Shown piece after piece: positions 41,160-59,319 of a stretch of 64,000 nt of DNA. A program made the position numbers and the translations under genes. The stretch's first letter is position 1. The number at the start of each line of letters is the position of its first letter. The notes beneath the pieces are model-generated. The model had not been told where the DNA came from and made no database searches. It saw only the letters and a list, made by a program, of their open reading frames with translations. The DNA is from Bacteroidales bacterium (lineage in GTDB: Bacteria; Bacteroidota; Bacteroidia; Bacteroidales; Prolixibacteraceae): NCBI GenBank assembly GCA_012719495.1, contig JAAYAG010000060.1:1-64000 (forward strand). The letters are read 5' to 3'.

Positions 41160-41176
41160 TTGATCTGCTTTAACGG

Positions 41177-41809
41177 TTAATAATCCTTGAGGTTAGTAAG
41201 TTGCTCTACGTCAACATCTTTAAATACGTCTCCAATTTTATTGAGAAAAATGCCCAGAATGAGTACACTGGCAAAAATATCGAGCATAATGCCCAGGTTC
41301 ACCAAGTGCGGCATTTCGTTCCCCACAGCCAGCGAAAGCACAAAAACCCCGTTTTCAATAATCATATAGCCCATAACATGGGTAATAATTTTCCTTCGGG
41401 AAGCAATTATATACAAACCCGAAAATATGGTCGAAAGGGCTACAACAAAGAACATCTTATCCAGATGAGTATCTTTTATGCTGTTCGAAAGCAATATGGT
41501 TGCAATCACTATGGCTGTTGTTATCAGCAACGAAACAAAGTTGGGAAGATAAGGCTCAGCCTCTCGGGTGATATTGTTCCGCCTTAGCAGATATGCTAAA
41601 AACATAGGTACAGCCACCGCCTTGAAAACAATGGTCTCGAGCATGATCAACACCAAGTTCAACGTGTTAATCTCATTCAACTGAAGAAACACGACAAAGA
41701 AAAGCAACACGCCCTGAACTGCCAGTACTTTAGTGTACGACAACAGTCGGTTGGCTATCGAAAGATAGAATAGCGTGATGATGAAAACTATCAGAAGTAC
41801 GTCTATCAT
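41177..41809 (-). CDS. HyfE-like small membrane subunit of hydrogenase-4-type complexes
   Basis: 210 aa, 6-7 TM. C-terminus VDVEQLTNLKDY resembles the E. coli HyfE C-terminus (…LDVNNLTALKG, recalled from memory). Confidence 0.5.
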   Translation of the reverse strand: MIDVLLIVFIITLFYLSIANRLLSYTKVLAVQGVLLFFVVFLQLNEINTLNLVLIMLETIVFKAVAVPMFLAYLLRRNNITREAEPYLPNFVSLLITTAIVIATILLSNSIKDTHLDKMFFVVALSTIFSGLYIIASRRKIITHVMGYMIIENGVFVLSLAVGNEMPHLVNLGIMLDIFASVLILGIFLNKIGDVFKDVDVEQLTNLKDY

Positions 41810-41828
41810 TGTTTTACATTTTTTATCG

Positions 41829-42734: not shown

Positions 42735-42736
42735 AA

Positions 42737-44764
42737 TTATAGTTGTTTTATAAATTCAAAAAAATCCAGAATCAATCCATATACCAACGGGATCATTATC
42801 AGTGAAATGATAAATATTATCCCGTATAATATCGAGAATTGCAATTTCCCGTTATTAAGGAATACAAACTTTCCTAAAAAGCTCTTAATTCCTCTTATTG
42901 GCCTGTCTATCAAGCTCTTTTCCAAACGATCATAAGGATGCGTCTTAAGGGCTGCATGTTCGGGGAAGATTCCCGATACAGGCTTTTCTTTTTGGCCAAT
43001 TAACAGCAAATGACCAAATAGTTTACTATAACTCCTTACATACGATGATGCGGTGTATTGTAACTTTGGTGTGGGTGAAACATATCCGCACCCCCAGGTA
43101 ACCGAAGATGTGGTAACCCTGTTTTTTGTGACCAACTTCCGCAGAAGGAACATCAACACAATAAGCACGATAAAACCTGTTGAAGCAAGTCCGATGTATT
43201 GCAATGTATCAGCAATACTTCCCTGAATTGGAGCAAACTCCCCTACCCTGTTTCCTGTGAGCACAGAAGTTGCATGGCTGACTACTCCAAAAAATCCCTG
43301 AGGAAAAATCCCTATACCAACAATAAGAAGAGCAATAAAATATAAAGGAATACGCTGAATAGCCGGAGCTTCATGTATTCCGTGTACGAATTTTTTCCTT
43401 GGTTCCCCTAAGAAAATTGTCCCAAATGCTTTGGTAAAACAAAAAAGGGCCAACCCTCCAATGAGCACAAGTGCCAGGGTTGAAAAAATAATCACAATAA
43501 GCGGGACGAGCGTAGCATTTTGTACCCATTGATATAAGCTGCTGTAAATCAAAAACTCAGAAACAAAACCATTCAGTGGCGGAATACCGCAAATGGCAAC
43601 AGCTGCTATAAGAAATAATAGGGTTGTGTGGGGCATTTTCTTAATAAGCCCGCCTAGATGCTCAATATTTAACGTATGAGTCGCCTGATAAACAATGCCT
43701 ACAGTATAAAACAGCAAGGATTTAAACAGTGCATGGTTTAAAGTGTGCAACAATGCCCCCGAAAAACCTAACCAGGCAACCAATTGATTACCATTGCCAA
43801 GGCCAATACACCCAATGCCTATCCCCATACCAATAATACCAATATTCTCGATACTATGATAAGCAAGTAACTTTTTAACATTGTGCTGAATAATTGCCAG
43901 CATTACTCCATATAACCCCGAGATGGCCGAAATAATCAGAATGAAATAGCCTATACTGGTATAGTCAGTTTTTATTAATACCAACATCCGCATAATTCCA
44001 TAAATCCCAATCTTAATAAGCACTCCCGACATGATTCCCGAAATATGGGTAGGAGCCGCCGGATGAGCATGGGGCAACCAGGTATGAAACGGGATAAAGC
44101 CCGCTTTGAAAGCAAAACCTATAAAGAAGCAAATGAAAAGGAAAAGACCAACCGAAGTGGGGTTCGACTGTGAATATTCAGTAATAGATGCAAAATCAAA
44201 ACTACCGGTTTTCACAGCAACCCAGATAAAACCCAGCATCAGAAAAAGAATAGAAACATGGGACTGAATCAGGTAATTAATACCCGCTTTCAATGTCGAC
44301 ATCTTATCTCCTTCAAAAATTACTGCAATAAATGCCGAAAGAGCCATCAGTTCCCAAGTAATGAGAAACACAAGGCTGTTCTGTATAACGCAAAGACTTA
44401 CAAGAGACAGGTGAAGCACAATGAATGCAATGCAGTGCAATGAAATCTGCTTTTGTTGCTCCCGGTATGCTTTAAGGTAGAAAATTCCATAAAAGCCCCC
44501 TGTAATAAAAACAATATTGATAATAAGAATAAACCATGCCGAAAGAGCATCAATCTGGAGCCTGATTGGGCCAGTTACCGCACTCCCGCCAAAAACATAT
44601 TCTTCGGCTCCTCCGACAATTGCGCTAATAGCTATCGCAGACGATAACCCGGCAACCAGCAAGAGTTCTAAATATGTAACTATTGCTTTTGCTTTCTCCT
44701 TCATAAAGGGGATGGCAACAACAGCCAACAAAGGCATCAGCAGATAAGCAGATATGTTACTCAT
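42737..44764 (-). CDS. NuoL-like (HyfB / MrpA-like) antiporter subunit, copy 2
   Basis: 675 aa. Conserved …WLPHAHPAAPTHISGIMSG… and …GIIGMGIGIG… antiporter motifs. Confidence 0.75.
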   Translation of the reverse strand: MSNISAYLLMPLLAVVAIPFMKEKAKAIVTYLELLLVAGLSSAIAISAIVGGAEEYVFGGSAVTGPIRLQIDALSAWFILIINIVFITGGFYGIFYLKAYREQQKQISLHCIAFIVLHLSLVSLCVIQNSLVFLITWELMALSAFIAVIFEGDKMSTLKAGINYLIQSHVSILFLMLGFIWVAVKTGSFDFASITEYSQSNPTSVGLFLFICFFIGFAFKAGFIPFHTWLPHAHPAAPTHISGIMSGVLIKIGIYGIMRMLVLIKTDYTSIGYFILIISAISGLYGVMLAIIQHNVKKLLAYHSIENIGIIGMGIGIGCIGLGNGNQLVAWLGFSGALLHTLNHALFKSLLFYTVGIVYQATHTLNIEHLGGLIKKMPHTTLLFLIAAVAICGIPPLNGFVSEFLIYSSLYQWVQNATLVPLIVIIFSTLALVLIGGLALFCFTKAFGTIFLGEPRKKFVHGIHEAPAIQRIPLYFIALLIVGIGIFPQGFFGVVSHATSVLTGNRVGEFAPIQGSIADTLQYIGLASTGFIVLIVLMFLLRKLVTKNRVTTSSVTWGCGYVSPTPKLQYTASSYVRSYSKLFGHLLLIGQKEKPVSGIFPEHAALKTHPYDRLEKSLIDRPIRGIKSFLGKFVFLNNGKLQFSILYGIIFIISLIMIPLVYGLILDFFEFIKQL

Positions 44765-46767
44765 TTTAAAACATTTAATCCAGTGAGGACAACTATAAGT
44801 ACCACAAACAAAATTCCATATAATACATACGATTGCATACGGCCATTTTGTATAAACTTGAAATAATTGGCACTAAACACTATCCGTTGAGTAACAAAGT
44901 TAAAAATATAGTACTCAAAAAAGTCTTTATAGTGCGATACATATTTTCGCTTCTTTGGAAATATTTCACCATCAGAAAGTTCTGCATATTTCTTCTCCTC
45001 TATCAGTAAAAAACTGAATACCTTTCCCAACGGTTTCGAAAACGATTTCCCGGTATACTGCATTTTGCTATTGGGGGCAACATAGGAGCAGCCCCAGGTT
45101 CCTTCGGTTTGCTGTTCCCGGTTTTTCACCATTAGCGAACGAATTCCCCAAATTATTCCTACAACGACCAACAATAAAATAAAATAATAGTTAACAGCAA
45201 CAATATTGTCTGAATAACTGGCAACTGACGAAAAAATGGCAATATTCTTCAAGCCGTCTTGAAGTATACATTGAATACTATTCAGGAAAAAGCGCGGAAA
45301 GAAAGCAACAAGAAGCATTACTGCTACAATAATGTATTGCGGAAACAGCATAATTTTCGACACTTCTTGCGGAACTGTATGCAATTTTTTCCGTGGTGAG
45401 CCAAGAAAAACCACCCCAAATGTTTTCGAAAAGGTAAGGATAGAAAGCCCTCCAATGAGGCTAAGCCCTGCAAATGATAAAATTACAAGACTGGTTTGTG
45501 TAATATCACCCGTTTTCAACGCTTCAATCAGGCCGTTATATAAAATGAATTCCGACACAAATCCGTTGAAGGGTGGCATACCCCCAATGGCAATAGCGCC
45601 AATCAGGAACAATATTGCCGTTTTGGGCATTTGCTTTATCAACCCGCCCAATTTCTCCATATCGCGGGTGTGGGTTTGCTGATACACTGAACCGGCTGAG
45701 TAGAAAAGCAGCGATTTGAATAGCGAATGGTTCAGCACATGCAACAGGGCGCCCGAGAATCCTAAAAAGAACAGTAACGGGGAGTTGTTGCCGATGCCAA
45801 TCAAGCCTAGCCCAATCCCAATGCCAATGATGCCAATATTTTCGATGGTACAATAAGCCAACATCCGTTTAAAATCGCGGTGAACAGCTGCATTTAGTAT
45901 TCCGTATAACCCGGTGAGCACCGATACCGAAAGAATAATTTCGCCGAGCATCAAAAAATCGGATTCAAGAAAAGTAATGACCCTGAATATTCCGTAAATA
46001 CCCAGCTTTACAATTACACCCGACATTACACCCGACACGTGCGACGGAGCCGCCGGATGCGCATGGGGCAACCAGCTATGAACAGGAATAAAGCCGGCTT
46101 TTATTCCAAATCCTACGAAAAAGATCAGAAAAAGCCATATGTTGTTATTATTGGCAAAGAATGTTGAAAAAGCATCGAAACTAAATGAGCCAGTAGTGGC
46201 ATATACCCAGATAAACCCTATTGTGAGAAGAATAACACTGATATGCATCTGAACCAGGTAATTAAGCCCAGCTTTCAGGGTTTTTGGTTTGTGCCCGTCG
46301 AAAATTACAAGAAGCATCGACGACAGCGACATTATTTCCCAAGCTACCAGGAAAGCAAAACTATGCTGCAACATACAAACCCAAACCATTGATAGCTGAA
46401 AAACAACATACAACGACCAATGAAGGGAAAGTTTAGCAGAGTTGTTTTGATAACTTCGAAGATAGCCAATGCCATAAAATGCACCCGTAACTGATGTAAA
46501 GTTGATAATAAGTATGAACCAAGCTGAGAGGCCGTCGATTTTTATCGGGATACTTCCCAAAAAAGAACCGGCAAAAATTGATACAGAACTTGTTGCCCCG
46601 CCTAATGCCTGAAGTGCAGGAATACTTGTTGACAATGCAGTAATAACACTAGCCAGAGCGGCAATATATGCTTTGCTATTTGGTTTGACTAACACGATAA
46701 AAACTATCGCAATCAGAGCAGTTGCCCACGACAGGTTCAATAATAATTCAGTACTTATCATTATCAC
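44761..46767 (-). CDS. NuoL-like (HyfB / MrpA-like) antiporter subunit, copy 1
   Basis: 668 aa. WLPHAHPAAPSHVSGVMSG motif. 4-nt ATGA overlap with copy 2. Confidence 0.75.
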   Translation of the reverse strand: MIMISTELLLNLSWATALIAIVFIVLVKPNSKAYIAALASVITALSTSIPALQALGGATSSVSIFAGSFLGSIPIKIDGLSAWFILIINFTSVTGAFYGIGYLRSYQNNSAKLSLHWSLYVVFQLSMVWVCMLQHSFAFLVAWEIMSLSSMLLVIFDGHKPKTLKAGLNYLVQMHISVILLTIGFIWVYATTGSFSFDAFSTFFANNNNIWLFLIFFVGFGIKAGFIPVHSWLPHAHPAAPSHVSGVMSGVIVKLGIYGIFRVITFLESDFLMLGEIILSVSVLTGLYGILNAAVHRDFKRMLAYCTIENIGIIGIGIGLGLIGIGNNSPLLFFLGFSGALLHVLNHSLFKSLLFYSAGSVYQQTHTRDMEKLGGLIKQMPKTAILFLIGAIAIGGMPPFNGFVSEFILYNGLIEALKTGDITQTSLVILSFAGLSLIGGLSILTFSKTFGVVFLGSPRKKLHTVPQEVSKIMLFPQYIIVAVMLLVAFFPRFFLNSIQCILQDGLKNIAIFSSVASYSDNIVAVNYYFILLLVVVGIIWGIRSLMVKNREQQTEGTWGCSYVAPNSKMQYTGKSFSKPLGKVFSFLLIEEKKYAELSDGEIFPKKRKYVSHYKDFFEYYIFNFVTQRIVFSANYFKFIQNGRMQSYVLYGILFVVLIVVLTGLNVLK

Positions 46768-47025: not shown

Positions 47026-47098
47026 GCCTTTTTAGCTCAGTTGGTAGAGCAGCTCATTCGTAATGAGCAGGTCGCGGGTTCGAGTCCCGTGAAAGGCT
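47026..47098 (+). tRNA. tRNA-Thr (anticodon CGT)
   Basis: Acceptor GCCTTTT/GAAAGGC, D-arm AGCTCAGTTGGTAGAGC, anticodon stem-loop GCTCA-TTCGTAA-TGAGC, T-loop TTCGAGT. A hairpin plus T-run follows at about 47127-47160. Confidence 0.85.
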
Positions 47099-47393
47099 CT
47101 GAGACAACCATCTAAATTTATTATAAAGCCTGAAATCAATGATTTTCGGGCTTTTTTATGTTTCATTGACAACAACTCAGTAATAGGAACTATTTATTGT
47201 TGTATGGATTGTTGAGTCAATGTGCTGCCATTCAGAACTTAATCCATAAGCTTTATTAATCGGTAAGTTATTCGCATTTTTAACAATTATCGTTAAATTC
47301 ACCTCTTCAAATTAACCAATATAAATCGAACCAATTGAAATTTGAAATACGTGAATTAATCTACTTTAGCTAAAGACTTAATAACTTATACTT

Positions 47394-48947
47394 ATGAGGG
47401 CGTTTTCAGTTTTATTTATCGTTTTAATCCTTTCAATGAATTTGAAAGCACAGCAAACGACCATTGATCAAAGTAAGTACCCACCGCTGGTTACTTTTAC
47501 TGCTGAGCAGGACCATGGCAATATGATGGGACAATTGGGTATAAAAGTGCTTCGACCCGGGCCAAGTGGAAATGAATCTGACCCCAACCATGCCAATTAC
47601 GATGAAGCGTTGGCAAATCCATGTCCCCAATTGCCTGATGTGCTTACAACCAGCAAGGGAAAAAAAGTAACTACACCCGATATGTGGTGGAACCAACGCC
47701 GACCCGAAATCGTTGAAGGTTTTGAGAAGGAAGTGTATGGACGTTTGCCCAAAAATATCCCGAATGTAAAATGGGAAGTTGAGATGACCGATTACGAACA
47801 AATTGGGTTTACACCAGTTGTAGCCAAAAAAATTGTTGGTCATGTCGATAACAGTGCTTACCCTTTAATTAGTGTGGATATCAATATGGTGTTGGTTGTG
47901 CCGTTGAATGTAAAAGGTCCTGTTCCCGTTTTAATGATGTTTGGTCGTCCTTCTTTACCAGCGCCGGCTGAACCTTCGGTCGATGACATGAAGCTTATCA
48001 ATAAAGCTTTTAAAGAAACGCTTATAAAAGATAATCCTGAATTGGAGGCGGTCTTTAAACGTTACCCGGCGTACGAACCCTTCAAACGCGAAGATCCTTT
48101 TGCTGGCATGATGCAGCGCCGTAACCAGGAACCTTCGTCAACTGAACGATTATTGGCTGCCGGTTGGGGATACGTTACCATTGACCCCAGCAGCATTCAG
48201 GCAGATAACGGTGCCGGGCTCACTCGGGGAATAATTGGGTTAGTGAATAAAGGACAGCCCCGTAAACCGGAAGACTGGGGTTCGCTCCGGGCATGGGCCT
48301 GGGGTGCTGCGCGTGCACTGGATTATCTTGAAACAGATTCTATTGTTGATGCAAAAAAGGTGGGGATTGAAGGCGTATCCCGTTATGGGAAAGCTGCTTT
48401 GGTTACCCTCGCTTTTGAACCACGCTTTGCAGTTGGCTTGATCGGATCATCCGGTAAGGGAGGTGCAGCCTTGCACAGGCGGGTTTTTGGCGAAGCAGTG
48501 GAAAGCCTTACCGGTGCTGGTGAATACCATTGGATGGCCGGGAATTATCTGAAATATGGCGCAGAGCAGGCCAGCTTTGGCAGGAAAACAGGTTGTGACC
48601 TTACCGTTGATTCTCATGAACTCATCGCATTATGTGCCCCGCGTCTGGCCTTTATTAGTTATGGAATTCCTGAGCAAGGCGATGCAAAATGGCTCGATCA
48701 GAAAGGCAGTTATATGGCTACCATTGCAGCCGGCGCTGTTTATAAATTGTTGGGTGCAAAAGATCTGGGTGTTTCCAATGATTATATGAAAGAGGAAATG
48801 CCTCCGGTACTGACCGGGTTACTGGACGGACAACTTGCATGGCGTCAACACGATGGCGGCCATACCGATGCTCCAAATTTTGAAACGTTTATTCCTTGGG
48901 CCAGTAAAATGCTTGGCTACGAAAAAGTTAGTTCAAGAAGACGTTAA
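47394..48947 (+). CDS. Carbohydrate esterase family 15-like (glucuronoyl esterase-like) secreted protein
   Basis: Signal peptide. GVSRYGK matches the CE15 G-C-S-R-x-G catalytic-serine motif with Cys replaced by Val. 517 aa. Confidence 0.5.
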   Translation: MRAFSVLFIVLILSMNLKAQQTTIDQSKYPPLVTFTAEQDHGNMMGQLGIKVLRPGPSGNESDPNHANYDEALANPCPQLPDVLTTSKGKKVTTPDMWWNQRRPEIVEGFEKEVYGRLPKNIPNVKWEVEMTDYEQIGFTPVVAKKIVGHVDNSAYPLISVDINMVLVVPLNVKGPVPVLMMFGRPSLPAPAEPSVDDMKLINKAFKETLIKDNPELEAVFKRYPAYEPFKREDPFAGMMQRRNQEPSSTERLLAAGWGYVTIDPSSIQADNGAGLTRGIIGLVNKGQPRKPEDWGSLRAWAWGAARALDYLETDSIVDAKKVGIEGVSRYGKAALVTLAFEPRFAVGLIGSSGKGGAALHRRVFGEAVESLTGAGEYHWMAGNYLKYGAEQASFGRKTGCDLTVDSHELIALCAPRLAFISYGIPEQGDAKWLDQKGSYMATIAAGAVYKLLGAKDLGVSNDYMKEEMPPVLTGLLDGQLAWRQHDGGHTDAPNFETFIPWASKMLGYEKVSSRRR

Positions 48948-49031: not shown

Positions 49032-49067
49032 GAATACGATCGAAAACAATTGTTTTCGATCGTATTC
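49032..49067. repeat. Perfect 36-bp palindrome GAATACGATCGAAAACAATTGTTTTCGATCGTATTC upstream of the MarR-like gene
   Basis: Read directly from the sequence. Followed by ATTTTAT. About 100 bp upstream of the regulator start. Confidence 0.6.
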
Positions 49068-49170
49068 ATTTTATGAGGTACTCCTCAAATAAATTTTTTT
49101 ATGTGAATTTTGTTGTTTCATAAACCAATTGTTGTATATTGCAACAGTTTTAATTTACAACATTGACGTA

Positions 49171-49638
49171 ATGAAAGAAACTGAAATTAATACGATAAAG
49201 AAATTCAGGGAAATACTCCGGAGTTTTGAACGCGAGATATTTGTGCAAACCAACGAGTGTTGTTGTGGTGGAGTTACACTAGCGCAATGTCATGCTCTTT
49301 TGGAAATCGAAAATAAGAAAACAGAATCGGTTACTGAGCTTGCCAAAACACTCGATCTCGATAAAAGCACTGTTAGCCGAACGGTTGATGGACTGGTAAA
49401 CATGGGGTACATTGACCGGACAATCCCGAACGAAAACCGGAGAACATCTGTCTTATCCCTTACCGAATCGGGGCAGAATGTATGCCTTTCGATCAATGCA
49501 AACAACGACAAGTTTATCGGCGATACGTTATCGATCTTAACCGATTCTGAAAAAGAGGAATTGATTGGGTTGTTTGAAAAAATTACAAACCAGATGATTT
49601 CTTTGCGAACAGCTTGTTGCAGTCCATACAAGCGTTAA
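49171..49638 (+). CDS. MarR-family winged-helix regulator with unusual Cys clusters (N-terminal ECCCGG…C-H, C-terminal CCSPY)
   Basis: Start at MKETEINT (ATG 49171). wHTH (…VTELAKTLDLDKSTVSRTVDGLVNMGYIDR…). Eight Cys in total. Confidence 0.65.
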   Translation: MKETEINTIKKFREILRSFEREIFVQTNECCCGGVTLAQCHALLEIENKKTESVTELAKTLDLDKSTVSRTVDGLVNMGYIDRTIPNENRRTSVLSLTESGQNVCLSINANNDKFIGDTLSILTDSEKEELIGLFEKITNQMISLRTACCSPYKR

Positions 49639-49677
49639 AATAAACTGCACACATCAATAGAACAATTAACAATAGCC

Positions 49678-50595
49678 ATGATTTTCGATAATATTTTACA
49701 AACCATTGGAAACACTCCTCTTGTGAGGATCAATCACCTGAACCCAAACCCAAACGTTACCATTGCTGCAAAAATCGAAGGGTTCAACCCATCGGGCAGC
49801 ATCAAAGACCGTATTGCACTGAAAATGATTGAACAGGCCGAAGCCGAAGGTATTTTGGCAAAAGGGAAGACCATTATTGAACCCACATCGGGCAATACCG
49901 GTATCGGGTTGGCCATGATCGGGAAGATTAAAGGGTACGAAGTTGAAATTGTTATCAGCAGGGCGGTTTCAGAAGAACGGATAAAAATGATCAAAGCCTT
50001 TGGGGCAAAGGTTACTTTTACCGATGAGAAGCTGGGAACCGACGGAGCAATTTTAAAAGCAAAAGAACTGGTTAAAGCCAATCCAAACAAATACTTCATG
50101 CCCGACCAGTTTTCTAACAACTACAACAAAATTGCCCACTACAAAACTACCGGCGAAGAGATATGGAAACAAACCAACGGGAAAATAACCCATCTGGTTT
50201 CGGCGCTTGGAACTTCGGGCACCATTATGGGCGTTGGAAAAGCGTTGAAAGAAAACAATCCCGCCATAAAAATTGTTTGTGCACATCCGGTCAAAGGTCA
50301 TTACATTCAGGGACTTAAAAGTATGGCCGAAGCGATTGTCCCGGCCATATACGATCCATCGAAAATTGATGAAACCATCATGATCGAAACCGAAAGTGCG
50401 TTTGAAATGGCTCGTCAGGTTGTGATGAAAGAGGGGATATTTGTTGGCATGAGCAGTGGCGCGGCCATGTATGCTGCCATCGAAACCGCTAAAAAGATCG
50501 ATTCGGGTACCATTGTCGTCATTTTTCCCGATAGTGGCGAGAAATACCTGAGCACCCAGCTTTTTTCAAAGTTGGAGAACAACGTTGAAAATTAA
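49678..50595 (+). CDS. cysK: Cysteine synthase (O-acetylserine sulfhydrylase)
   Basis: 305 aa. PLP-lysine motif NPSGSIKDR, glycine-rich loop TSGNTGIGLA. Confidence 0.9.
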   Translation: MIFDNILQTIGNTPLVRINHLNPNPNVTIAAKIEGFNPSGSIKDRIALKMIEQAEAEGILAKGKTIIEPTSGNTGIGLAMIGKIKGYEVEIVISRAVSEERIKMIKAFGAKVTFTDEKLGTDGAILKAKELVKANPNKYFMPDQFSNNYNKIAHYKTTGEEIWKQTNGKITHLVSALGTSGTIMGVGKALKENNPAIKIVCAHPVKGHYIQGLKSMAEAIVPAIYDPSKIDETIMIETESAFEMARQVVMKEGIFVGMSSGAAMYAAIETAKKIDSGTIVVIFPDSGEKYLSTQLFSKLENNVEN

Positions 50596-50760
50596 AATCA
50601 GAACGCCGTTCCGGAAAGCATATTTTCTTTATAATCATCTTATTAACACCTATAAACCCTGAATAAAACTATTGAGGCAGGTATTGTATTCTCCTGTAAG
50701 AACGTTTTCAAATAGCAGTTAATAATAGAATATGACATTCAGAATAAAAACATACATGCA

Positions 50761-52107
50761 ATGACGAATATCCACTCGGAATATGGGTTAAGGAAGCTTC
50801 TGCAACTGGCTCTTCCTGTAATTGCATCCTCTTTTTTGTCGATGGCCTACAGCTTCATTAATGTTCTGTTTGTCGGCAAACTGGGAAGCGGTGCGGTTGC
50901 TGCGGTTGGGACTGCCGGTTTCTACATGAATTTAAGCTGGAGCATCTCGGCATTGATTACGGTAGGAACGGGCATAAAAGTGTCGCACGCTGTAGGAAAA
51001 AGAGATCTGACACTGGCTAAAGGTTATATCCGGAGCGGAATGTTGGCCATTGGTGTGATAGCACTTGCATACCTGGCTTTTTTGATGATTTTTAATAAAG
51101 AACTGATCGGTTTTGTCAAGCTAAACGACGTGGCTATCGAAACGGCATCGGCCAATTATCTTGTGTGGGCAGGTTTATGCATCCCTTTTACTTTCATCAA
51201 CCTGTTTTTCACCAGTGTTTTTATTGGGTATGGCGATAGTCGTTCTCCATTTCGGATCAATGCAACTGCCTTTGCATTAAATATCCTGCTCGATCCAATT
51301 CTAATTTTTCTTATTGGATTAGGGATTAAAGGTGCGGCTATTGCCACTATTCTTTCGCAAGTAACAGCAACAGTGCTCTTCTTTTATAAAGTAAAAGCAA
51401 CAAAAACCATTTACCCCGAAAGAGGTGCTTTTTCAAAAAAATTACTGAAAGATATTGTTGGGCTGGGTGTAAGTCCGGCAGTGCAACGGGTTTCGTTTAC
51501 AATTGTGGCCATTTTTATGGCACGCATTATCAGCAACTGGGGGCCTGCGGCTATTGCTGTGCAGAAAGTTGGTGTCCAGATTGAAGCTATATCATATATG
51601 ACCGCTGGTGGTTTTCTGTCGGCACTTTCAGCAATGTCGGGGAAAGCTTACGGAGCTAAAAATTACCAGGGGCAGTGGGTTGCGTTCAAATCGGGAATTA
51701 CGGTGGCTTTTGTTATCGGAGTTGTTACCTCCAGCCTCTTCATCTTATTTCCTGAAGCGCTTTTTTCAATCTTCATTAACGAAGAAGAGAGCATTGCAAT
51801 GGGATCGGCATACTTAAGGGTGCTGGGATTTTCGCAGCTTTTCATGTGCCTCGAGATGGTTACTACCGGTGCTTTTTTTGGATGGGGCAAAACCAATATC
51901 CCGGCTATTACAAGCATCTCGCTAACGGTGTTGCGCATTCCAATGGCTTTGTTATTCATTCAATTCTGGAGCAATTCGCTGGTTTCGGTTTGGTGGAGCA
52001 TTAGTATCAGCAGCATGGCAAAGGGCATCATTTTGACCGTTTTGTATATTATACTGTTCAAGCTTTTTTTAAGAGATAGAAATACCATGAAACAAGCTTT
52101 AAGGTGA
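50761..52107 (+). CDS. MATE family efflux transporter
   Basis: 448 aa, 12 TM, MATE-type repeat architecture. Confidence 0.8.
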   Translation: MTNIHSEYGLRKLLQLALPVIASSFLSMAYSFINVLFVGKLGSGAVAAVGTAGFYMNLSWSISALITVGTGIKVSHAVGKRDLTLAKGYIRSGMLAIGVIALAYLAFLMIFNKELIGFVKLNDVAIETASANYLVWAGLCIPFTFINLFFTSVFIGYGDSRSPFRINATAFALNILLDPILIFLIGLGIKGAAIATILSQVTATVLFFYKVKATKTIYPERGAFSKKLLKDIVGLGVSPAVQRVSFTIVAIFMARIISNWGPAAIAVQKVGVQIEAISYMTAGGFLSALSAMSGKAYGAKNYQGQWVAFKSGITVAFVIGVVTSSLFILFPEALFSIFINEEESIAMGSAYLRVLGFSQLFMCLEMVTTGAFFGWGKTNIPAITSISLTVLRIPMALLFIQFWSNSLVSVWWSISISSMAKGIILTVLYIILFKLFLRDRNTMKQALR

Positions 52108-52175
52108 ATGCATTTACAATAGAATGAATGTTGTGGCGAGTTCCTTCAGGCAATTTAAAAACAAATTAGTATCAG

Positions 52176-54494
52176 ATGAAACCATTTATCAATCAAATTA
52201 AAGGAAACCGCTGGCTGAATGGGTTATTTGGCCTCGAAAAAGAGAATATCCGTGTCGATCAGCAAGGAGTTTTCGCACAAACACCTCATCCTGCTTCTTT
52301 TGGCGACAGGGTGAAACATCCGTTTATTACGACCGATTTTTCAGAAAGCCAGATCGAGATGATTACGCCGCCATTGTCTTCCATCTCTGAAGCGCTGGGC
52401 TTTCTCGAAACCATTCACGACCTGGTAAGTCTTGAGCTGAACGGAGAACTTCTTTGGCCACAAAGCATTCCTCCGGTTATTCCTGCCGAGGAATCGATAC
52501 CGATTGCCCGTTACTCAAACCTGGGCAAAAAAGAAGAGGAGTACCGCAAGAACCTCGCTTTGAAATACGGGCGCAAAAAACAGGCACTCTCCGGCATTCA
52601 TTTCAACATTTCGCTCAACGAAAACCTGCTTCACCAACTAAATCGGGAGGTTGAACCAACTGTGCCTTTTACCGAATTTACCGATTCGGTCTACCTGAAA
52701 ATTACCCGGCAGCTTTTGCGCTACCGCTGGCTTTATGTGTTGTTGTTTGGCAGCAGCCCTGTTGTTGATCCAAGTTTCGACCTGAAATGTCGTAGCCTGC
52801 CCATCTACCTCAATACAAAGTCGTATGCACTTTCGTTCCGGAACAGCTGTTTTGGATATGGTAACCTCGAAGAGCTTTTCCCCGACTATCAATCGGTAAG
52901 CGGATACAAACAAAGCATCGAAACAATGGTGAAAACCGGAAAGATTTCGGCACAAAAAGAACTGTATGCTTCGGTCAGACCAAAGTTTCTGAAGGATTCC
53001 GAGTCGGTTTCGTATGTCGAGGTAAGGTTTATCGACATCAACCCGCTGAGCAAGATTGGTATTACCCCCGAAATGCTGCAATTTATTCACTGGCTTGCCA
53101 TTTATGGCTTGTTAACCGACGAACAGGACGACTTTGTCCCAGACTTTCAGTCAATAGCAAGCCGAAACCATGAAAACATTTCGCACAACGGACTGCACAA
53201 CGATATTACGGTCATCTCTTCGTCGGGCGAAGTGGTAAACGTGTGGGACGAAGCCCGCCGCATCATCAGCTCAATGACCGAACTGTACAGCAAGCTTGAG
53301 ATTGAAAATAGCGGTTACCGAAACATGCTCGACTATGTTAGTGCGTTGGCCAATGACCCGGCAAAGCGTGATGTACACCAGATTATTGCCGGGACTGAAG
53401 AGAAAGGGTACATTGCATTTCATCTCGAAAAAGCCCGTCAGTATTTAGCCGAAAGCCAAAAAAACAGCTTCAGCTTCAAGGGGTTTGAAGACCTTGAACT
53501 TTCGACCCAACTTGTGCTGCGCGAAGCAGTCAGAAGGGGTGTTGCATTTGAACTGCTCGACCGTGAAGAAAACTTTGTCCGCCTTAGTCGCGACGGGAAT
53601 GTGCAGTACATTCAGCAGGCAACCAAAACTTCGCTCGATAATTATGCCGGAATTCTGGCCATGGAAAACAAAGTAGTGACAAAGAAAATACTTGACGGCC
53701 AAGGAATACGGGTGCCAAAGGGGATGAACTATTCCGATGCACAAACGGCTCTGTCCGATTTCAGCCTTTTTGAGGGACAAGCAATCGTCATCAAGCCCAA
53801 AACAACCAACTTTGGCAAGGGCATCACCATTTTGAAAGAGAATACCAATGCCACCGTTTATGAACGAGCGGTTGCCATTGCTTTTGAAGCGGACAACAAC
53901 ATTCTGATCGAAGAATTTATTGCAGGCAATGAGTTCCGCATTTTTGTAATGGACAATGACGTGGTGGGAATACTGCATCGTGTTCCGGCCAACGTAACCG
54001 GAAACGGTGACCTGACAATCGGGGAGCTGGTGGCTATAAAGAACGAAGATCCCTTGCGGGGAAAAGGTTATCGGACACCGCTCGAGAAGATTAATCTGGG
54101 CGAGGCCGAAGAGATGTTCCTCGCTTTGCAGGGAAAAACATTCGAAACCATTCCGGCCAATGGTGAAACCGTCTTTCTGCGCGAGAATTCGAACATCAGC
54201 ACCGGTGGCGACAGCATCGACTTTACCGACGAGATACCTGAATCGTACAAGAAAATTGCCGTGCAGGCAACACAAGCACTGAACGTCAGAATCACGGGGC
54301 TCGATATGATCATAGCCGATTACACACAGGAGGCCAATGCCGAAAACTATGCTATTATTGAGATGAATTTCAACCCGGCAATTCACATTCATTGCCATCC
54401 ATACAAAGGAAAAAACCGCAGGCTGAACGAAAAACTGCTCGATATGCTGGGCTTTGCCGCACCTGTTGCATTGGGTTCGCAACACAATTTGTGA
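52176..54494 (+). CDS. gshAB: Bifunctional glutamate--cysteine ligase / glutathione synthetase (GshF/GshAB type)
   Basis: 772 aa. N-terminal GshA-like domain (…HPFITTDFSESQIEMITPP…). C-terminal ATP-grasp domain (…EFIAGNEFRIFVMDNDVVG…). Confidence 0.8.
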   Translation: MKPFINQIKGNRWLNGLFGLEKENIRVDQQGVFAQTPHPASFGDRVKHPFITTDFSESQIEMITPPLSSISEALGFLETIHDLVSLELNGELLWPQSIPPVIPAEESIPIARYSNLGKKEEEYRKNLALKYGRKKQALSGIHFNISLNENLLHQLNREVEPTVPFTEFTDSVYLKITRQLLRYRWLYVLLFGSSPVVDPSFDLKCRSLPIYLNTKSYALSFRNSCFGYGNLEELFPDYQSVSGYKQSIETMVKTGKISAQKELYASVRPKFLKDSESVSYVEVRFIDINPLSKIGITPEMLQFIHWLAIYGLLTDEQDDFVPDFQSIASRNHENISHNGLHNDITVISSSGEVVNVWDEARRIISSMTELYSKLEIENSGYRNMLDYVSALANDPAKRDVHQIIAGTEEKGYIAFHLEKARQYLAESQKNSFSFKGFEDLELSTQLVLREAVRRGVAFELLDREENFVRLSRDGNVQYIQQATKTSLDNYAGILAMENKVVTKKILDGQGIRVPKGMNYSDAQTALSDFSLFEGQAIVIKPKTTNFGKGITILKENTNATVYERAVAIAFEADNNILIEEFIAGNEFRIFVMDNDVVGILHRVPANVTGNGDLTIGELVAIKNEDPLRGKGYRTPLEKINLGEAEEMFLALQGKTFETIPANGETVFLRENSNISTGGDSIDFTDEIPESYKKIAVQATQALNVRITGLDMIIADYTQEANAENYAIIEMNFNPAIHIHCHPYKGKNRRLNEKLLDMLGFAAPVALGSQHNL

Positions 54495-54708
54495 ACCCAA
54501 TGCAACGCTTTGGTTTAGAAAGTAGATTTATGCCTAGAAGCGCAAAAAATCAGAAGCGAAATTTGAAATATCCCCTTGTTCTTTCAGAATAATAAACCTA
54601 ATGAAAAACTAATTGTTAACAGAGAAGTTTCCATTGCGTGATGGAATCATTGAATCCTTTATCAGTGGAATAACTGACGAAATGGTTGAGAAGGAATAGG
54701 CTCGAAAA

Positions 54709-54876: not shown

Positions 54877-56193
54877 TTATAATTCGCCAAGTAGTTGTTT
54901 CAGACGGGTTTCTGCTATTTTCAACGCATATCTGTAATTTGTTAACCTAGTTGCCGACTCTTCAAAATCATTTTGCGCCATTCGTACTTCAAGAGAAGTA
55001 GCTTCGCCCAAACGCATTCGTTGTAAACTTATATCGAGATTTTCGCGAGCCAACTCATTGTTTTCCTTCTCTATTGTTAAAAGTTGCTGTTGGCTTTCAA
55101 AAGTATTTAGTGCATTAAGCAATTCTGTATTAACCTGATTTCTTGTGTTTTCGAGATTGTATTGAGCAATATCCACCTCAATTTTCGATAACGCTACCTG
55201 CCGCTGCAAATTACCTGCACGAAATATAGGAATCACCATCGAAGCCCCAATTTGAGGCCATAACGACCGGCTTTGCGAACGATTGTCAGCATCAAAATTA
55301 TTGTTGGTAATATGCTGAAAATAATATCCTCCGCTAAGATTAACCTGTGGCAACAACGTGCGATAATTCTCTTTCAACTGCAATTTCTCAATAGCTAACT
55401 GCTTTTCAAAAGCTTGTATCGTTGCGTTTTGTGTATATATGCGTTGGTTCAATTCATCACGATCGGGTGTGTAATTGAAGGTAACTTCAGAAGAAACATC
55501 AAAATTGCTATCAGTAACCAGCTTTCGGGCTAATTCGCGGCGGGCTGTTTCAATCGCCGTTTTTTGGTTAATAGCATTCTGCTGATTTACGTTAAGATCG
55601 ATTTTCGCCTGAAGCAAATCGGTTTTACTTTTCGAACCTGTCTTGAAAGCAGTTTCAGCAATAGTAACCCGTTCACTATTGTACTTTATAATCTGCTCTA
55701 TAGCTGCTAATTGCTGCTTTTGCTTAACCACATTGTAATATGCACTAATAACATCGGCCAAGGTTTGCAACACTTGTTGTTTATACCTTATTTCGCCCAA
55801 TGCTTCTATCTCGTTCAATTTCGATTTGGCAACAAACATCTTTCCCCCGTCAAAAATAGTCCACGAAAGTTCGGCTCCGGCATTAAGGGTAGCAATACCA
55901 TTCTGCTGGTTTGTATACTCTTCGTTTTCAGAGGCTTTACTTCCAGTTTGTTTTAACGCATAATTACCCGATCCCGTTAAGTTTATCGAAGGAAGCATTC
56001 CGGCAGCACCTGCCGTGTTGTTGGTTGCCGATATAGCAGCCTCACTTTTTGAAACTGAAATATCGAAATTGTTTTTTAACGCCAGGGCCATTGCCTCATC
56101 AATGGTGAGAACTTTTTGTGCATAAGCACCAGAGCCAAGCGCTAAAACGATTATTGTCAACAACAATGATTTTATATTCTTCATGTGAAACAC
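54877..56193 (-). CDS. TolC-family outer-membrane efflux protein
   Basis: 438 aa. Signal peptide. Two-repeat coiled-coil / beta pattern. Confidence 0.8.
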   Translation of the reverse strand: MFHMKNIKSLLLTIIVLALGSGAYAQKVLTIDEAMALALKNNFDISVSKSEAAISATNNTAGAAGMLPSINLTGSGNYALKQTGSKASENEEYTNQQNGIATLNAGAELSWTIFDGGKMFVAKSKLNEIEALGEIRYKQQVLQTLADVISAYYNVVKQKQQLAAIEQIIKYNSERVTIAETAFKTGSKSKTDLLQAKIDLNVNQQNAINQKTAIETARRELARKLVTDSNFDVSSEVTFNYTPDRDELNQRIYTQNATIQAFEKQLAIEKLQLKENYRTLLPQVNLSGGYYFQHITNNNFDADNRSQSRSLWPQIGASMVIPIFRAGNLQRQVALSKIEVDIAQYNLENTRNQVNTELLNALNTFESQQQLLTIEKENNELARENLDISLQRMRLGEATSLEVRMAQNDFEESATRLTNYRYALKIAETRLKQLLGEL

Positions 56194-56229
56194 TTATAAT
56201 ACTATTCAATAACAAAAGGTTATGTCAAA

Positions 56230-59200
56230 TTATTTAATCCCTTCTTTTTCAAGCTCGAGCATCAATTCGCTGTTCGCCTTTCTTGGCTTTTTACTGGTCA
56301 TGACAATATACATCACCGGAATAACAAACAACGTGAGCAAGAGTGAGAAAAGAATTCCCCCAACAACAACAACACCAAGAGGAATGCGGCTTTCAGCACC
56401 CGAACCCAAGGCCAGTGCAATAGGCAATGCCCCAAAAACAGTGGCCAGCGAAGTCATTAAAATTGGCCGTAACCTTGATGATGCAGCTTCAAATGCGGCA
56501 TCTTTTATGGTAAGACCGGCTTCGCGTTTTTGGTTAGCAAACTCAACAATCAGAATTCCGTTCTTAGTTACAATACCAATAAGAAGCAACATACCAATTT
56601 CGGAGAAGATGTTCAGGGTGTGCCCAAAAATCCAAAGCGAAAGCATTGCACCAGCAATAGCCATTGGCACGGTAAGCATAATAATGAACGGATCTCTGAA
56701 ACTTTCGAACTGAGCCGCCAAAATCAAATATACAAGCAACAGGGCTAAAGCAAGGGCAAAGAAAATATTGGAACCACTCTCAGCAAAGTCGCGCGATGGT
56801 CCTGACAAATCGGTCTCAAACGACGAATCGAGAAGCCCTTCAGCGATGCGGTTCATTTCATCGATCCCTTCGCCCAGCGAGTAACCTTTTGCCAGGTTGG
56901 CAGAAATGGTAGCCGATTTGTAACGATTGAAATGGTAAAGGGTTGGAGGGTTACTGTTTTCTTCAATTTTTACCAGATTATCGAGCTGAATCATTTCCCC
57001 TTTATTGTTTCGCACATAAAGCTTCGAAATATCTGCGGGATCGTCGCGGTTTTCACGTTCAACCTGCATTACAACATAATACTGCTTGTTGTTCCGGAGA
57101 AAATACCCGGTACGTCCCCCGCTGAAAGCCATATTGAGTGCATCGGTAATATCTCTTATATTTACACCAAGACTTGTTGCCTTAAGCCTGTCGACAATGA
57201 TGTTAAGTTCGGGTTTGTTAAATTTAAGATCTGAATCAACCACGCTGAACACTTCGCTATTTCTGGCTTCTTCCAAGAAACGAGGCAAAACATCGCGAAT
57301 TTTCTGAAAATCAATATTTTGCAACACAAATTGAACGGGCAAACCTCGTGAAAAAGCAGTAGCAATAGTTGGTTCCTGACTTGCAATAACCCGGGCTCCC
57401 GAAATTGCACTATATTTTGCGGTAAGTTCATCGTAAATTTCTTGTTGAGATCGTTCACGTGAATCAGGCTCATCAAGCATAGTCATAATATTACCTGAGT
57501 TACCAGAGCTTCCTCCCCAGCCTCCATAGCGTGTCAATACGTAACGTATTTCCGGGATTGTTTCCAACTGCATATCGGCAATGGAATTGGTAATCTTCTG
57601 AGTAGTTGAGAACTCTGTCCCTTCAGGTGCGGTAATTGATGTACGGATAAAACTATGGTCTTCGAGCGGAGCCAATTCACTTTTTAAACTACCCCCGATA
57701 AAGACAATGAGCAGGATACAAAGGACCATAATTAAAAATGAAGCCCATTTATGACCGATAAACAACTTGAGTGCTTTTCGATAGCCGCTTTCCATCCCCA
57801 CAAAGAATGGCTCGGTTTTATTATAGAATGCCGAATGATGCGAAGCTGAACCACCAAGTTTTACGTTAAGAACTGGGGTAAGTGTTAGCGATACTATAGC
57901 AGAAATCAATATGGCACTGGCCATTACAATTCCAAATTCGCGGAAAAGCCGTCCGGTAAACCCTTCAAGAAAAATAACCGGAATGAAAACAATGGCAAGA
58001 GTCAAAGAAGTAGAAACAACCGCAAAGAAAATTTCGCGGGTACCTTCTGCGGCAGCACGCCACTTGTTCATACCCCGTTCAATACGTTTAAAAATATTTT
58101 CGGTTACCACAATCCCGTCGTCAACAACAAGCCCAGTGGCCAAGACAATCCCCATAAGAGTCAGCACGTTGATGGAATACCCCATAATATACATCACGAA
58201 AAAAGTGCCTATCAGCGAAACCGGGATATCGATTAATGGTCGTATTGCAATAATCCAGTTACGGAAAAAGAGGAAAATAATTATCACAACCAAAACAATG
58301 GCTATGAGCAATGTTTCAAGAACATCGTGAACCGACTGCCTGACAAATATTGAACTATCACGCCCCATGGTGAGCTCCATTCCTTCAGGAAGGTTTTCTT
58401 TCACTTGCTCAAGGCGTTTGTAGAACTCATCAGCAATTTCAATGGTATTGGCTCCCGGTAAAGGGATCATGGCTATCGTTACCCCATTAGCTCCATTTAT
58501 CGTTGCCCCCGACTCTTCATCCTGTGGACCAAGAACCGCTTCTCCAACATCGCTGAAACGAATTACCTGATTATTGTTTTGCTTTATAATCAAATTGTTA
58601 AAGTCTTCTTCGGAAGTTAATCGGCCATAAGTACGGATGGTCAATTCGGTCCCGTCACCCCTAATTTTACCTCCCGGTGTTTCCACATTTTCCCGGCTTA
58701 ACGCAGACGTTACATCAGAAATAGTAAGGCCGCGGGCAGCAAGTTTTACCGGGTCAATCCATAGCCGCATAGCTGGTTTTTGTTCTCCAAATATAGAAAC
58801 GGAACTGATGCCCGGAATGGTTTGAAATTTTTCAAGAAGCACATTGTCAGCATATTCACTTAATTCAATCGCGTTCATCTTGGTGCTTTGTGCTATAAGC
58901 ATCATGATAGGTTCAGCATTGGCATCGGCCTTGGTAACCGTTGGCGGGGCATCAAGATCTAGGGGAAGGCGCCGTGTAGCTTGCGATACTTTATCGCGTA
59001 CATCGTTAGCTGCTTTTTCAAGGTCGGAACCCAGCTCAAATTCAACAGTAATACGACTCGATCCCATAGATGAAGAAGAGGAAATTGACTTCACCCCTTC
59101 AATGCCATTGATAGAACGTTCGAGTACTTCTGTAATCTGCGATTCAATAATTTCGGAATTCGCTCCAATATACGAAGTGGATACGGTAATAATAGGAGGG

Positions 59201-59319
59201 TCTATAGCTGGATAAAGCCTTACTCCCAGAAAATTATACCCAACAACCCCCAGCAAAAGAATAACCAGACTGAGCACCGTAGCGGCGACAGGCTTTTTTA
59301 ACGCAACATCTGAAATCAT
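56230..59319 (-). CDS. RND (HAE1/AcrB-like) efflux permease
   Basis: 1029 aa, 12 TM with two large periplasmic loops. Confidence 0.9.
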   Translation of the reverse strand: MISDVALKKPVAATVLSLVILLLGVVGYNFLGVRLYPAIDPPIITVSTSYIGANSEIIESQITEVLERSINGIEGVKSISSSSSMGSSRITVEFELGSDLEKAANDVRDKVSQATRRLPLDLDAPPTVTKADANAEPIMMLIAQSTKMNAIELSEYADNVLLEKFQTIPGISSVSIFGEQKPAMRLWIDPVKLAARGLTISDVTSALSRENVETPGGKIRGDGTELTIRTYGRLTSEEDFNNLIIKQNNNQVIRFSDVGEAVLGPQDEESGATINGANGVTIAMIPLPGANTIEIADEFYKRLEQVKENLPEGMELTMGRDSSIFVRQSVHDVLETLLIAIVLVVIIIFLFFRNWIIAIRPLIDIPVSLIGTFFVMYIMGYSINVLTLMGIVLATGLVVDDGIVVTENIFKRIERGMNKWRAAAEGTREIFFAVVSTSLTLAIVFIPVIFLEGFTGRLFREFGIVMASAILISAIVSLTLTPVLNVKLGGSASHHSAFYNKTEPFFVGMESGYRKALKLFIGHKWASFLIMVLCILLIVFIGGSLKSELAPLEDHSFIRTSITAPEGTEFSTTQKITNSIADMQLETIPEIRYVLTRYGGWGGSSGNSGNIMTMLDEPDSRERSQQEIYDELTAKYSAISGARVIASQEPTIATAFSRGLPVQFVLQNIDFQKIRDVLPRFLEEARNSEVFSVVDSDLKFNKPELNIIVDRLKATSLGVNIRDITDALNMAFSGGRTGYFLRNNKQYYVVMQVERENRDDPADISKLYVRNNKGEMIQLDNLVKIEENSNPPTLYHFNRYKSATISANLAKGYSLGEGIDEMNRIAEGLLDSSFETDLSGPSRDFAESGSNIFFALALALLLVYLILAAQFESFRDPFIIMLTVPMAIAGAMLSLWIFGHTLNIFSEIGMLLLIGIVTKNGILIVEFANQKREAGLTIKDAAFEAASSRLRPILMTSLATVFGALPIALALGSGAESRIPLGVVVVGGILFSLLLTLFVIPVMYIVMTSKKPRKANSELMLELEKEGIK

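Follow-up and report, generated by a model that had tools for sequence, protein, structure and literature searches.

The metal-responsive proteins of the MarR family listed in a 2024 review are Zn-binding ones (AdcR, LdtR) and Cu-oxidised ones only (PMC11211675), and the Zn ligands of AdcR lie in the loop between helices 1 and 2, in helix 2 and in helix 5 (PMC6224198, PMC11211675). OhrR, MexR, MgrA and Escherichia coli MarR combine the MarR fold with Cys-based regulation and with palindromic operators that overlap the promoter region (PMC11211675), an arrangement that we also propose here. At the mercury-methylation genes hgcAB, an unnamed 'putative transcriptional regulator' was reported upstream in 112 genomes (McDaniel et al. 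2020, PMC7438021), and MarR-family genes were found upstream of hgcA in two isolates, Dethiobacter and Geobacter (Zhang et al., PMC10349881). The hgcAB regulators tested so far are confined to an ArsR-like one in one Desulfovibrionaceae lineage (bioRxiv 10.1101/2022.10.17.512643, PMC11984097), and the ArsR-like hgcAB regulator of Pseudodesulfovibrio mercurii ND132 responds to arsenate and arsenite (bioRxiv 10.1101/2022.10.17.512643; see also PMC11984097). Each of the following is already known by itself: the bifunctional glutathione enzyme GshF, Cys sensors of the MarR type, ars operons under ArsR control and regulators that adjoin hgcAB. Here we describe a Cys-rich MarR-family regulator, its predicted operator and the glutathione genes that follow it in a stretch of 64,000 nucleotides from a Bacteroidales bacterium of the Prolixibacteraceae (contig JAAYAG010000060.1, positions 1 to 64,000; hereafter the window). 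On balance, and with moderate confidence, we favour the explanation that these genes form a glutathione operon responsive to thiophilic metal(loid)s, probably of the arsenite type, under control of the Cys-rich MarR repressor.

The regulator contains Cys at residues 30, 31, 32, 40, 105, 149 and 150 and His at residue 41. Its relatives were collected by a protein search, which gave 297 homologues at E ≤ 1e-5, mostly from Bacteroidales metagenomes, and by a scan of one genome per species, which gave 127 relatives and 79 loci that were kept (numbered L001 and so on where a number is needed). Among 76 regulators, comprising that of the window and those of the loci, C32 and C40 are present in all, C31 in 74, H41 in 72 and C105 in 67. 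A C-terminal CC is found in 6 of the 8 full-length members without C105, versus 15 of the 67 members with it. When 1.84 billion cluster representatives were searched, the regulator matched 89 clusters at E ≤ 1e-30, and CC-x(4-8)-[QK]C was kept in 111 of the best 150 cluster representatives. Because the cysteines are so strongly conserved, a thiol- or metal-sensing role is a reasonable prediction for this regulator. The sequence-only reading that preceded this work had proposed such sensing from the Cys motifs, and the invariance of C32 and C40 leaves that proposal standing.

In an AlphaFold2 model (pLDDT 87), the regulator has a canonical MarR fold with helices at residues 3-30, 37-49, 54-61, 65-77, 99-120 and 125-149 and a wing at 81-97. 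C30-C32 occupy the end of helix 1 and the loop, C40 and H41 the first turn of helix 2, C105 helix 5, and C149 and C150 the end of helix 6. The zone of C31, C32, C40, H41 and C105 is the junction of the dimerisation helices with the winged helix. All top Foldseek matches to the model were MarR proteins (E ~1e-8), and searches of the PDB by sequence and by fold returned generic MarR proteins only, with no close characterised relative.

By curated models the regulator is MarR-type and falls outside the AdcR, ArsR and OhrR families: the AdcR family model NF038251 gave 27.3 bits versus a cut-off of 175, the ArsR helix-turn-helix domain PF01022 19 bits versus a gathering score of 22, and the OhrR model NF052638 24.8 bits versus a cut-off of 200. 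The MarR fold is common to AdcR, ZitR and the window regulator, and residues of the latter align with or near the AdcR ligand positions. In a comparison with an AdcR sequence entered by hand, hhalign paired C31, C40 and H41 with C30, E41 and H42 of AdcR, and C105 fell two residues before E107/H108. Only H41 (=H42) and C31 (=C30) are retained from the AdcR ligand set (E24, H42, H108, H112; C30, E41, E107), and the other ligand positions hold Cys or non-ligand residues. In contrast to AdcR and ZitR, the window regulator has sulfur donors in place of Glu and His donors, and its cargo consists of detoxification and thiol genes, not Zn-uptake genes. Moreover, whereas Zn activates DNA binding by AdcR and ZitR, the window regulator would be expected to be de-repressed by metal. 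OhrR, MexR, MgrA and E. coli MarR carry one or two Cys elsewhere and have no counterpart of the conserved CC-x7-CH. The reactive Cys of the OhrR type is near the N-terminus of helix 1, whereas the window regulator has its conserved Cys where helix 1 ends and within helix 2.

Some ArsR proteins (AfArsR, CgArsR) bind As(III) through a vicinal Cys pair and a third Cys, in sites that evolved convergently. The vicinal Cys and third Cys of the window regulator resemble these sites. The window regulator nevertheless differs from ArsR/SmtB proteins in protein family, Cys positions and operator. In related genomes, ArsR/SmtB As(III) sensors are found upstream of the same cargo (hgcAB, gshF, arsN2).

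When the sequences preceding the regulator gene in the 18 gshF-type loci were aligned, they shared an almost invariant element, composed of GTTGTATATTGCAAC, one base and GTTTTAAnnTACAAC, with 4-27 nt between its end and the start codon. Each half is a palindrome of 15 bp with the pattern GTTGYA-N3-TRCAAC. The second box keeps its register in every regulator-MATE-gshF locus except L052 (17 of 18), and it is also present at many hgcA loci. In most hgcA-hgcB-regulator loci that have the box, box 1 is located 16-30 bp upstream of hgcA (maximum 49 bp), and the box was also found upstream of Trx7 and C_GCAxxG_C_C genes adjoining a regulator. Overall, 4-48 bp separate the box from the leading gene of the regulator-containing operon downstream of it, and this applies to all 18 regulator-MATE-gshF loci, to the hgcA-hgcB-regulator loci and to the Trx7 and C_GCAxxG_C_C genes beside a regulator. 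The exact pattern matched 59 times in 978 kb of related loci, versus 0.55 matches expected from base composition, and 54 of these matches are just upstream of the regulator gene, hgcA, or adjoining Trx7/C_GCAxxG_C_C genes. It has no match in ~84 kb of gshF/hgcAB loci where an ArsR takes the place of the regulator. Since the RNA fold of the operator region was not significant (z -1.3), we read the region as a DNA site. These data are strong comparative evidence for the tandem element as the predicted operator of the regulator family, heading whichever operon includes the regulator.

Two further occurrences of the pattern were noted. In a Syntrophomonadaceae locus (L073, 1949-1979), a perfect tandem duplicate of a variant box, GTTGTATTATACAAT, precedes regulator-hgcA-hgcB, so that the sequence of the operator changes together with that of its regulator. 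In the window, a third exact match, GTTGTACGCTGCAAC, is found at 39144-39158 inside an ORF (open reading frame) for a 49-kDa-subunit-like protein (38231-39730) of a complex-I/hydrogenase-like cluster. This match was treated as chance rather than as a functional operator, as it is intragenic and ~0.8 matches are expected at one mismatch.

The genomic neighbours of the regulator family point to metal(loid)s. The regulator adjoins hgcA-hgcB in 43 of the 79 loci (HgcA NF040863 399 bits, cut-off 275; HgcB NF040864 125.6 bits, cut-off 99), with the order hgcA-hgcB-regulator in Bacteroidales and regulator-hgcA-hgcB in Firmicutes, Acidobacteria and Deltaproteobacteria. The regulator-MATE-gshF cassette accounts for 18 loci, and in smaller groups the neighbour is an S-adenosylmethionine methyltransferase related to the DVU_1556/ArsM families, a C_GCAxxG_C_C protein, or a thioredoxin-like protein together with a beta-propeller protein. 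In a neighbour-joining tree, the gshF-linked regulators form one clade, sister to the Bacteroidales hgcAB-linked clade, and the regulators of other phyla that precede hgcAB branch deeper. Within the cassettes, MATE is present in 18 of 18 and always ahead of gshF. Between regulator and MATE there is an ArsN2-type acetyltransferase gene in 9 cassettes (NF040501 147.7 bits, cut-off 125) and cysK in 4, with 84-99% identity (99% in L001; 84-86% in L002, L003 and L008). As judged from gene content, the core cassette is regulator-MATE-gshF and cysK is optional.

The regulators reported by McDaniel et al. and Zhang et al. probably belong to the same family as the window regulator or to an overlapping one, matched here by description and not by sequence. 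Those accounts give adjacency only, with no Cys motif, operator or link to gshF. In the open-access literature we found no description of the CC-x7-CH motif, of the operator or of the regulator-MATE-gshF cassette, nor of gshF in ars/hgcAB clusters of Bacteroidales or of MATE genes in ars operons in such an arrangement.

GshF homologues are common in environmental Bacteroidales (3301 matches at E ≤ 1e-50), so that the presence of GshF alone is not unusual. The window GshF shares its layout, with the glutamate-cysteine ligase at the N-terminus and the ATP-grasp domain at the C-terminus, with GshF of the Streptococcus agalactiae, Listeria and Pasteurella type. Unlike in those known systems, gshF of the window and of related Bacteroidales is an accessory gene, belonging either to arsenic/hgcAB clusters or to the regulator-MATE cassette. 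For the nearest GshF homologues that are not in this cassette (63-78% identity), 7 of 7 sampled contexts were ars-type clusters: arsR-arsC-hgcA-hgcB-gshF-acr3 (twice), hgcA-hgcB-gshF-acr3, arsR-gshF, arsR-arsC-arsM-arsN2-gshF-acr3 in Paludibacter, C_GCAxxG_C_C-arsR-arsC-gshF-acr3 in Mariniphaga, and arsR-...-arsC-gshF-methyltransferase-acr3. The locus of the window suggests that in environmental Bacteroidales gshF serves the defence against arsenic or metals as an accessory gene and is not part of a housekeeping thiol pathway. In terms of gene order, the MarR-type regulator and ArsR can take each other's place ahead of shared cargo genes, and because they front the same cargo in different genomes, the signals they respond to would be related.

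In sister strains of the window, an arsR-arsC-acr3 operon is located directly upstream of the regulator on the same strand. We propose a metal(loid) signal because hgcAB is the main partner of the regulator family, ArsN2 occurs in half of the cassettes, ars genes lie upstream in the sister strains, and the contexts of GshF are of the ars type. Thus, the operon resembles a response to toxic metals or arsenic more than a housekeeping system for thiols. The sequence-only reading had described a thiol-homeostasis module, which is correct for the cysteine and glutathione cargo and too narrow as a frame, given how seldom cysK accompanies the cassette, how often the regulator adjoins hgcAB, and the ars clusters that hold the nearest GshFs.

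Gene identities in the window (Table 1) are based on ORF calls with translation and on profile searches (Pfam, NCBIfam/TIGRFAM). A + strand series of ORFs encodes a 517-aa esterase, the regulator, a pyridoxal phosphate enzyme of 305 aa, a membrane protein of 448 aa and a protein of 772 aa. The regulator, cysK, MATE and gshF genes and the perfect 36-bp palindrome named in the sequence-only reading were all recovered at their positions, and the esterase gene noted there is now specified as CE15 glucuronyl-esterase-like. That reading placed a MarR-type regulator behind the other genes; the family is right, but the gene actually lies in front of cysK. The regulator ORF is open from TTG 49129. Since homologues have ~155 aa and begin with M-K/N-x-x-D/E, the true start is most likely ATG 49171 and not this TTG. 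The pyridoxal phosphate enzyme passes the cysKM subfamily model TIGR01136 and misses the equivalog cut-offs for CysM (358 versus 394) and CysK (332 versus 351), and PF01554 matched the MATE protein in two stretches. For GshF, the match to NF002688 spans model positions 14-752 of 756, TIGR01435 is slightly under its cut-off (633.6 versus 656), and the domains are PF04262 (279 bits in two stretches, best at residues 13-254), PF18419 and an ATP-grasp domain at residues 438-617. The bifunctional enzyme of the sequence-only reading is borne out by this full-length equivalog match, from which glutathione synthesis by GshF is predicted.

Table 1. Positions of the genes, predicted operator boxes and hairpins of the regulator-gshF region in the window
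Feature	Position	Strand	Details
CE15 glucuronyl-esterase-like gene	47394-48947	+	PF22244 98.9 bits (cut-off 27); neighbour, outside the module
Strain-variable intergenic segment	48951-49104	.	blastn of L001 and L084 versus the window
Perfect 36-bp palindrome GAATACGATCGAAAACAATTGTTTTCGATCGTATTC	49032-49067	+	16-bp stem, 4-nt loop, then ATTTTAT
Operator box 1 GTTGTATATTGCAAC	49131-49145	.	GTTGYA-N3-TRCAAC palindrome; predicted regulator site
Operator box 2 GTTTTAATTTACAAC	49147-49161	.	Degenerate palindrome, separated by 1 nt from box 1 and by 9 nt from ATG 49171
Cys-rich MarR-family regulator, 155 aa	49171-49638	+	PF01047 48.3 bits (cut-off 24.6)
Cysteine synthase (O-acetylserine sulfhydrylase, CysK/CysM family), 305 aa	49678-50595	+	TIGR01136 375 bits (cut-off 344)
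MATE-family transporter, 448 aa	50761-52107	+	TIGR00797 212.8 bits (cut-off 147.4)
Bifunctional GshF/GshAB (glutamate-cysteine ligase + glutathione synthetase), 772 aa	52176-54494	+	NF002688 908.9 bits (cut-off 425)
Hairpin with 19-bp stem over the gshF stop codon	54464-54507	+	dG -31.5 kcal/mol, z -6.4

Intergenic gaps within the block are 39, 165 and 68 bp, and prediction found no + strand terminators in the gaps from regulator to gshF. From these short gaps, the lack of predicted terminators in them and the strong hairpin at the end of gshF, we consider that regulator, cysK/M, MATE and gshF probably form one operon, with the same moderate confidence that we give to the favoured explanation as a whole. 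The single + strand block described in the sequence-only reading agrees with this. The hairpin over the gshF stop codon is likely the operon terminator, opposite a convergent TolC-type gene; this downstream gene, on the - strand, belongs to the OEP family. An Rfam scan of the whole window returned two tRNAs only, and no riboswitch or leader matched in the block. A scan for sigma-70 promoters gave matches no commoner than in shuffled sequences and was not used, as it does not cover the promoter type of this organism. A contig of a Prolixibacteraceae metagenome-assembled genome (MAG), DAOQAB010000135, matches window positions 49105-54602 with 97.7% DNA identity.

In the proposed mechanism, a dimeric MarR-family repressor would bind both boxes (49131-49161) just upstream of its own start codon and shut off the operon. 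C31, C32, C40, H41 and C105, with the C-terminal CC as an optional addition, would form a conserved thiolate cluster that binds a thiophilic metal(loid), and this binding would release the repressor. Arsenite would be the likeliest effector, and Hg(II), Cd(II) or Sb(III) are also possible. Release would then switch on cysteine supply by CysK/M together with GshF, raising glutathione, and export of some compound by the MATE protein. The 36-bp palindrome would stand outside this circuit. Sequence comparison shows the gene identities, the conserved cassette, the conserved Cys/His cluster, the joint occurrence of palindromic element and regulator, the strain-level behaviour of the 36-bp palindrome and the repeated association with ars and hgcAB genes; that the regulator binds DNA and represses, which effector it senses and what the MATE protein does are the parts of the mechanism that we infer.

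Several observations weigh against a metal(loid)-responsive operon. The conserved His is atypical of As(III) S3 sites, and Cys3His might just as well make up a Zn site with a structural or sensing function. The window contains neither ars genes, which were checked by tblastn, nor hgc genes. Most Bacteroidales hgcAB-regulator loci are without ars genes within 8 kb, and the common signal of the family therefore need not be arsenic. The 165-bp gap between cysK and MATE could harbour an internal promoter. Furthermore, the AdcR sequence used with hhalign was entered by hand, ORFs in the related loci were called crudely, and the trees are simple neighbour-joining ones. The main rival explanation is a sensor of thiol redox state or sulfane sulfur, whose Cys would be oxidised to disulfides or persulfides and whose operon would restore the thiol pool without any metal. 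Such sensing of reactive oxygen species or sulfane sulfur through Cys occurs in many MarR proteins (PMC11211675), and both the cysteine and glutathione synthesis encoded here and the thioredoxin-like and C_GCAxxG_C_C redox proteins adjoining other family members would suit it. We nevertheless regard it as rather unlikely, since cysK is found in just 4 of the 18 cassettes, OhrR models score far under their cut-off, and the associations with ArsN2, ars operons and hgcAB point to metal(loid)s; in addition, a near-invariant His beside C40 and the alignment with AdcR ligands suit coordination better than disulfide chemistry. The same alignment also speaks for a Zn site, either structural or an AdcR-like co-repressor site, in which case the metal-bound form would bind DNA and the inducer would be another compound or loss of the metal. 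Zn is classically coordinated by Cys3His sets. In the alignment, the residues match the pocket of AdcR and ZitR, where Zn activates DNA binding (PMC6224198). The AdcR family model, however, scores far below its cut-off, and none of the cargo genes gshF, hgcAB and ArsN2 serves Zn uptake. C105 and the C-terminal CC can substitute for each other as third or fourth ligand, a flexibility that recalls the convergent As/Cd sites of ArsR proteins more than a structural site of fixed composition, and we consider a Zn site improbable. An Fe-S cluster held by the conserved Cys, making the regulator a sensor of oxygen or iron-sulfur status, is more improbable still. Four or more conserved Cys in the regulator of an anaerobe would allow it, and HgcB and other partner genes do encode Fe-S or Cys-rich proteins; but vicinal CC pairs are generally known as poor joint ligands of a single cluster, the ligand set is variable, and profile and PDB searches found no similarity to a known Fe-S regulator family.

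The remaining rival explanation concerns the 36-bp palindrome, which could be the operator of the regulator or a site of another protein controlling the block. It is perfect, long and statistically exceptional: it is single-copy in the window even at 3 mismatches, and 0 of 100 shuffles matched. It begins 84 nt past the esterase stop codon and ends 103 nt ahead of ATG 49171. A search of the window for its half-sites gave weak 2-mismatch matches only. Its anatomy is terminator-like, with a predicted RNA fold of -23.3 kcal/mol (z -7.5), although the run that follows (AUUUUAU in the RNA) has only four consecutive T. Comparable long hairpins end other genes of the window (35006-35037, 47125-47154 and 54464-54507). 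Comparison of strains bears directly on the two roles. In the window and in metagenome contig L085 the order is esterase, palindrome, regulator. In L084 an ars operon (193-2380) is inserted immediately right of the palindrome, giving esterase, palindrome, arsR-arsC-acr3, regulator, with the palindrome 2.3 kb from the regulator and beyond the ars operon. In L001 the whole variable segment is replaced by 2.2 kb with arsR-arsC-acr3 (586-2785), so that the order is esterase, arsR-arsC-acr3, regulator; the palindrome is absent, yet the regulator and the tandem boxes are kept. These arrangements tie the palindrome to the 3' end of the esterase gene and make it dispensable for the regulator module. 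It was also not found at the other 78 regulator loci, where a different motif is conserved. An operator role is accordingly very hard to sustain, and we give it the lowest probability of the explanations considered here. Most likely, the palindrome forms the hairpin of an intrinsic terminator for the CE15 esterase gene, and the intergenic stretch that bears it is prone to insertions and deletions. Of the two roles offered by the sequence-only reading, operator or terminator, the second is by far the likelier. A dispersed repeat was also considered and ruled out, as the window has no second copy and a metagenome-wide scan with the 26-nt core gave two contigs, both of the same locus, in agreement with that reading.

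How hgcAB is controlled and what its true purpose is are open questions in mercury biogeochemistry. The locus reveals a sequence-defined regulator family different from the ArsR-like one, with a conserved Cys/His cluster and a conserved predicted operator, located beside hgcAB in dozens of species, and in the clade of the window this hgcAB-associated family heads a glutathione operon. As thiol metabolism the locus is unremarkable; its value is as a regulatory handle. It supplies a concrete protein-DNA pair that can be tested with candidate effectors, and thereby a handle on the switching of hgcAB and glutathione synthesis in anaerobic Bacteroidales. We tentatively go further and suggest, as a possibility short of being probable, that the regulator represents an unrecognised class of MarR thiolate metal(loid) sensors with the fixed operator GTTGYA-N3-TRCAAC, which may be the main switch of hgcAB in Bacteroidales and several other anaerobic phyla and may have been rewired in one clade to a glutathione synthesis and export cassette. 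If so, the identity of the effector would reveal the natural cue for hgcAB expression, glutathione synthesis in anaerobic Bacteroidales would be an inducible defence against arsenic or heavy metals, and a MarR protein sensing soft metal(loid)s would extend the list of metal-responsive members given in the review.

The genes of the block differ in their nearest relatives. In a neighbour-joining tree, the window GshF branches with GshFs of ars clusters and not with those of the other regulator-MATE cassettes; it is 76% identical to the GshF of L080 (3472-5802), which belongs to an arsR-arsC-hgcAB-gshF-acr3 cluster, versus ≤62% to other cassette GshFs. The regulator is closest to those of L002 (80%) and L003 (69%), and so is cysK (86%), whereas MATE is 60-67% identical across related loci with no nearest partner. 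The GC content at third codon positions (GC3) of gshF, 0.538, is the highest of 47 ORFs (mean 0.421, sd 0.050). The GC content of the block is within the range of the window, and neither GC nor codon usage is anomalous for the block as a whole, only the GC3 of gshF deviating. These differences suggest, from sequence comparison, a mosaic operon. Both flanks vary among strains, the left one through presence or absence of the ars operon and the palindrome. The genes flanking the 18 cassettes are unrelated between genomes (SDR, aminotransferase, TPR, PAS, flavin reductase and others) and are uninformative on function. Unrelated flanks, strain-variable flanks and the mosaic all fit an island-like, recombining cassette. 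The possible horizontal acquisition raised in the sequence-only reading thus gains from the GC3 of gshF, the ars-type branching of GshF and the variable flanks, and finds no support in the ordinary GC content of the block.

On the right flank, homology to L001 stops at 54602, ~100 nt past the gshF hairpin, and L001 continues with a PAS-domain gene (8288-9341). The window and L083 have there a convergent TolC/AcrB/MFP (TolC/RND) efflux operon at 54877-60380. In L086 (4662-14382), from another Bacteroidales genome, an hgcA-hgcB-gshF-acr3 cluster abuts a complex-I-like/hydrogenase cluster with the same gene order as window positions 37449-46761, upstream of the esterase gene. A tRNA gene beside a variable region is a classic insertion point of islands. 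A tRNA-Thr(CGT) gene is found at 47026-47099, followed by the terminator-like hairpin at 47125-47154, ~300 bp upstream of the esterase gene, and no integrase was seen. The hairpin at 35006-35037 is a second perfect palindrome, 32 nt long (CTGCTGCCGCGGTTTGCAAACCGCGGCAGCAG, dG -30 kcal/mol), located between convergent genes, and is probably a bidirectional terminator.

In the ars operons of the sister strains, ACR3 of L001 matches TIGR00832 with 460.8 bits (cut-off 282.8), and the ArsC-like protein of L001 is of the thioredoxin type and under its equivalog cut-off. The arsR promoter region (L001 ~640-680; L084 ~255-295) has its own inverted repeat, CATACGTCA-N13-TGACGTATG, a probable operator of ArsR that bears no relation to the box of the MarR-type regulator. 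In L003, an ArsR-like gene (13313-13627; 41% identity to the ArsR of L001) is located directly downstream of gshF in a regulator-cysK-MATE-gshF cassette. Some genomes hold the regulator more than once: one MAG has two hgcAB-regulator loci (L040 and L042), and L054 carries two regulator paralogues 3 kb apart (4479-4916 and 7986-8423), each with a box before Trx7 or C_GCAxxG_C_C genes.

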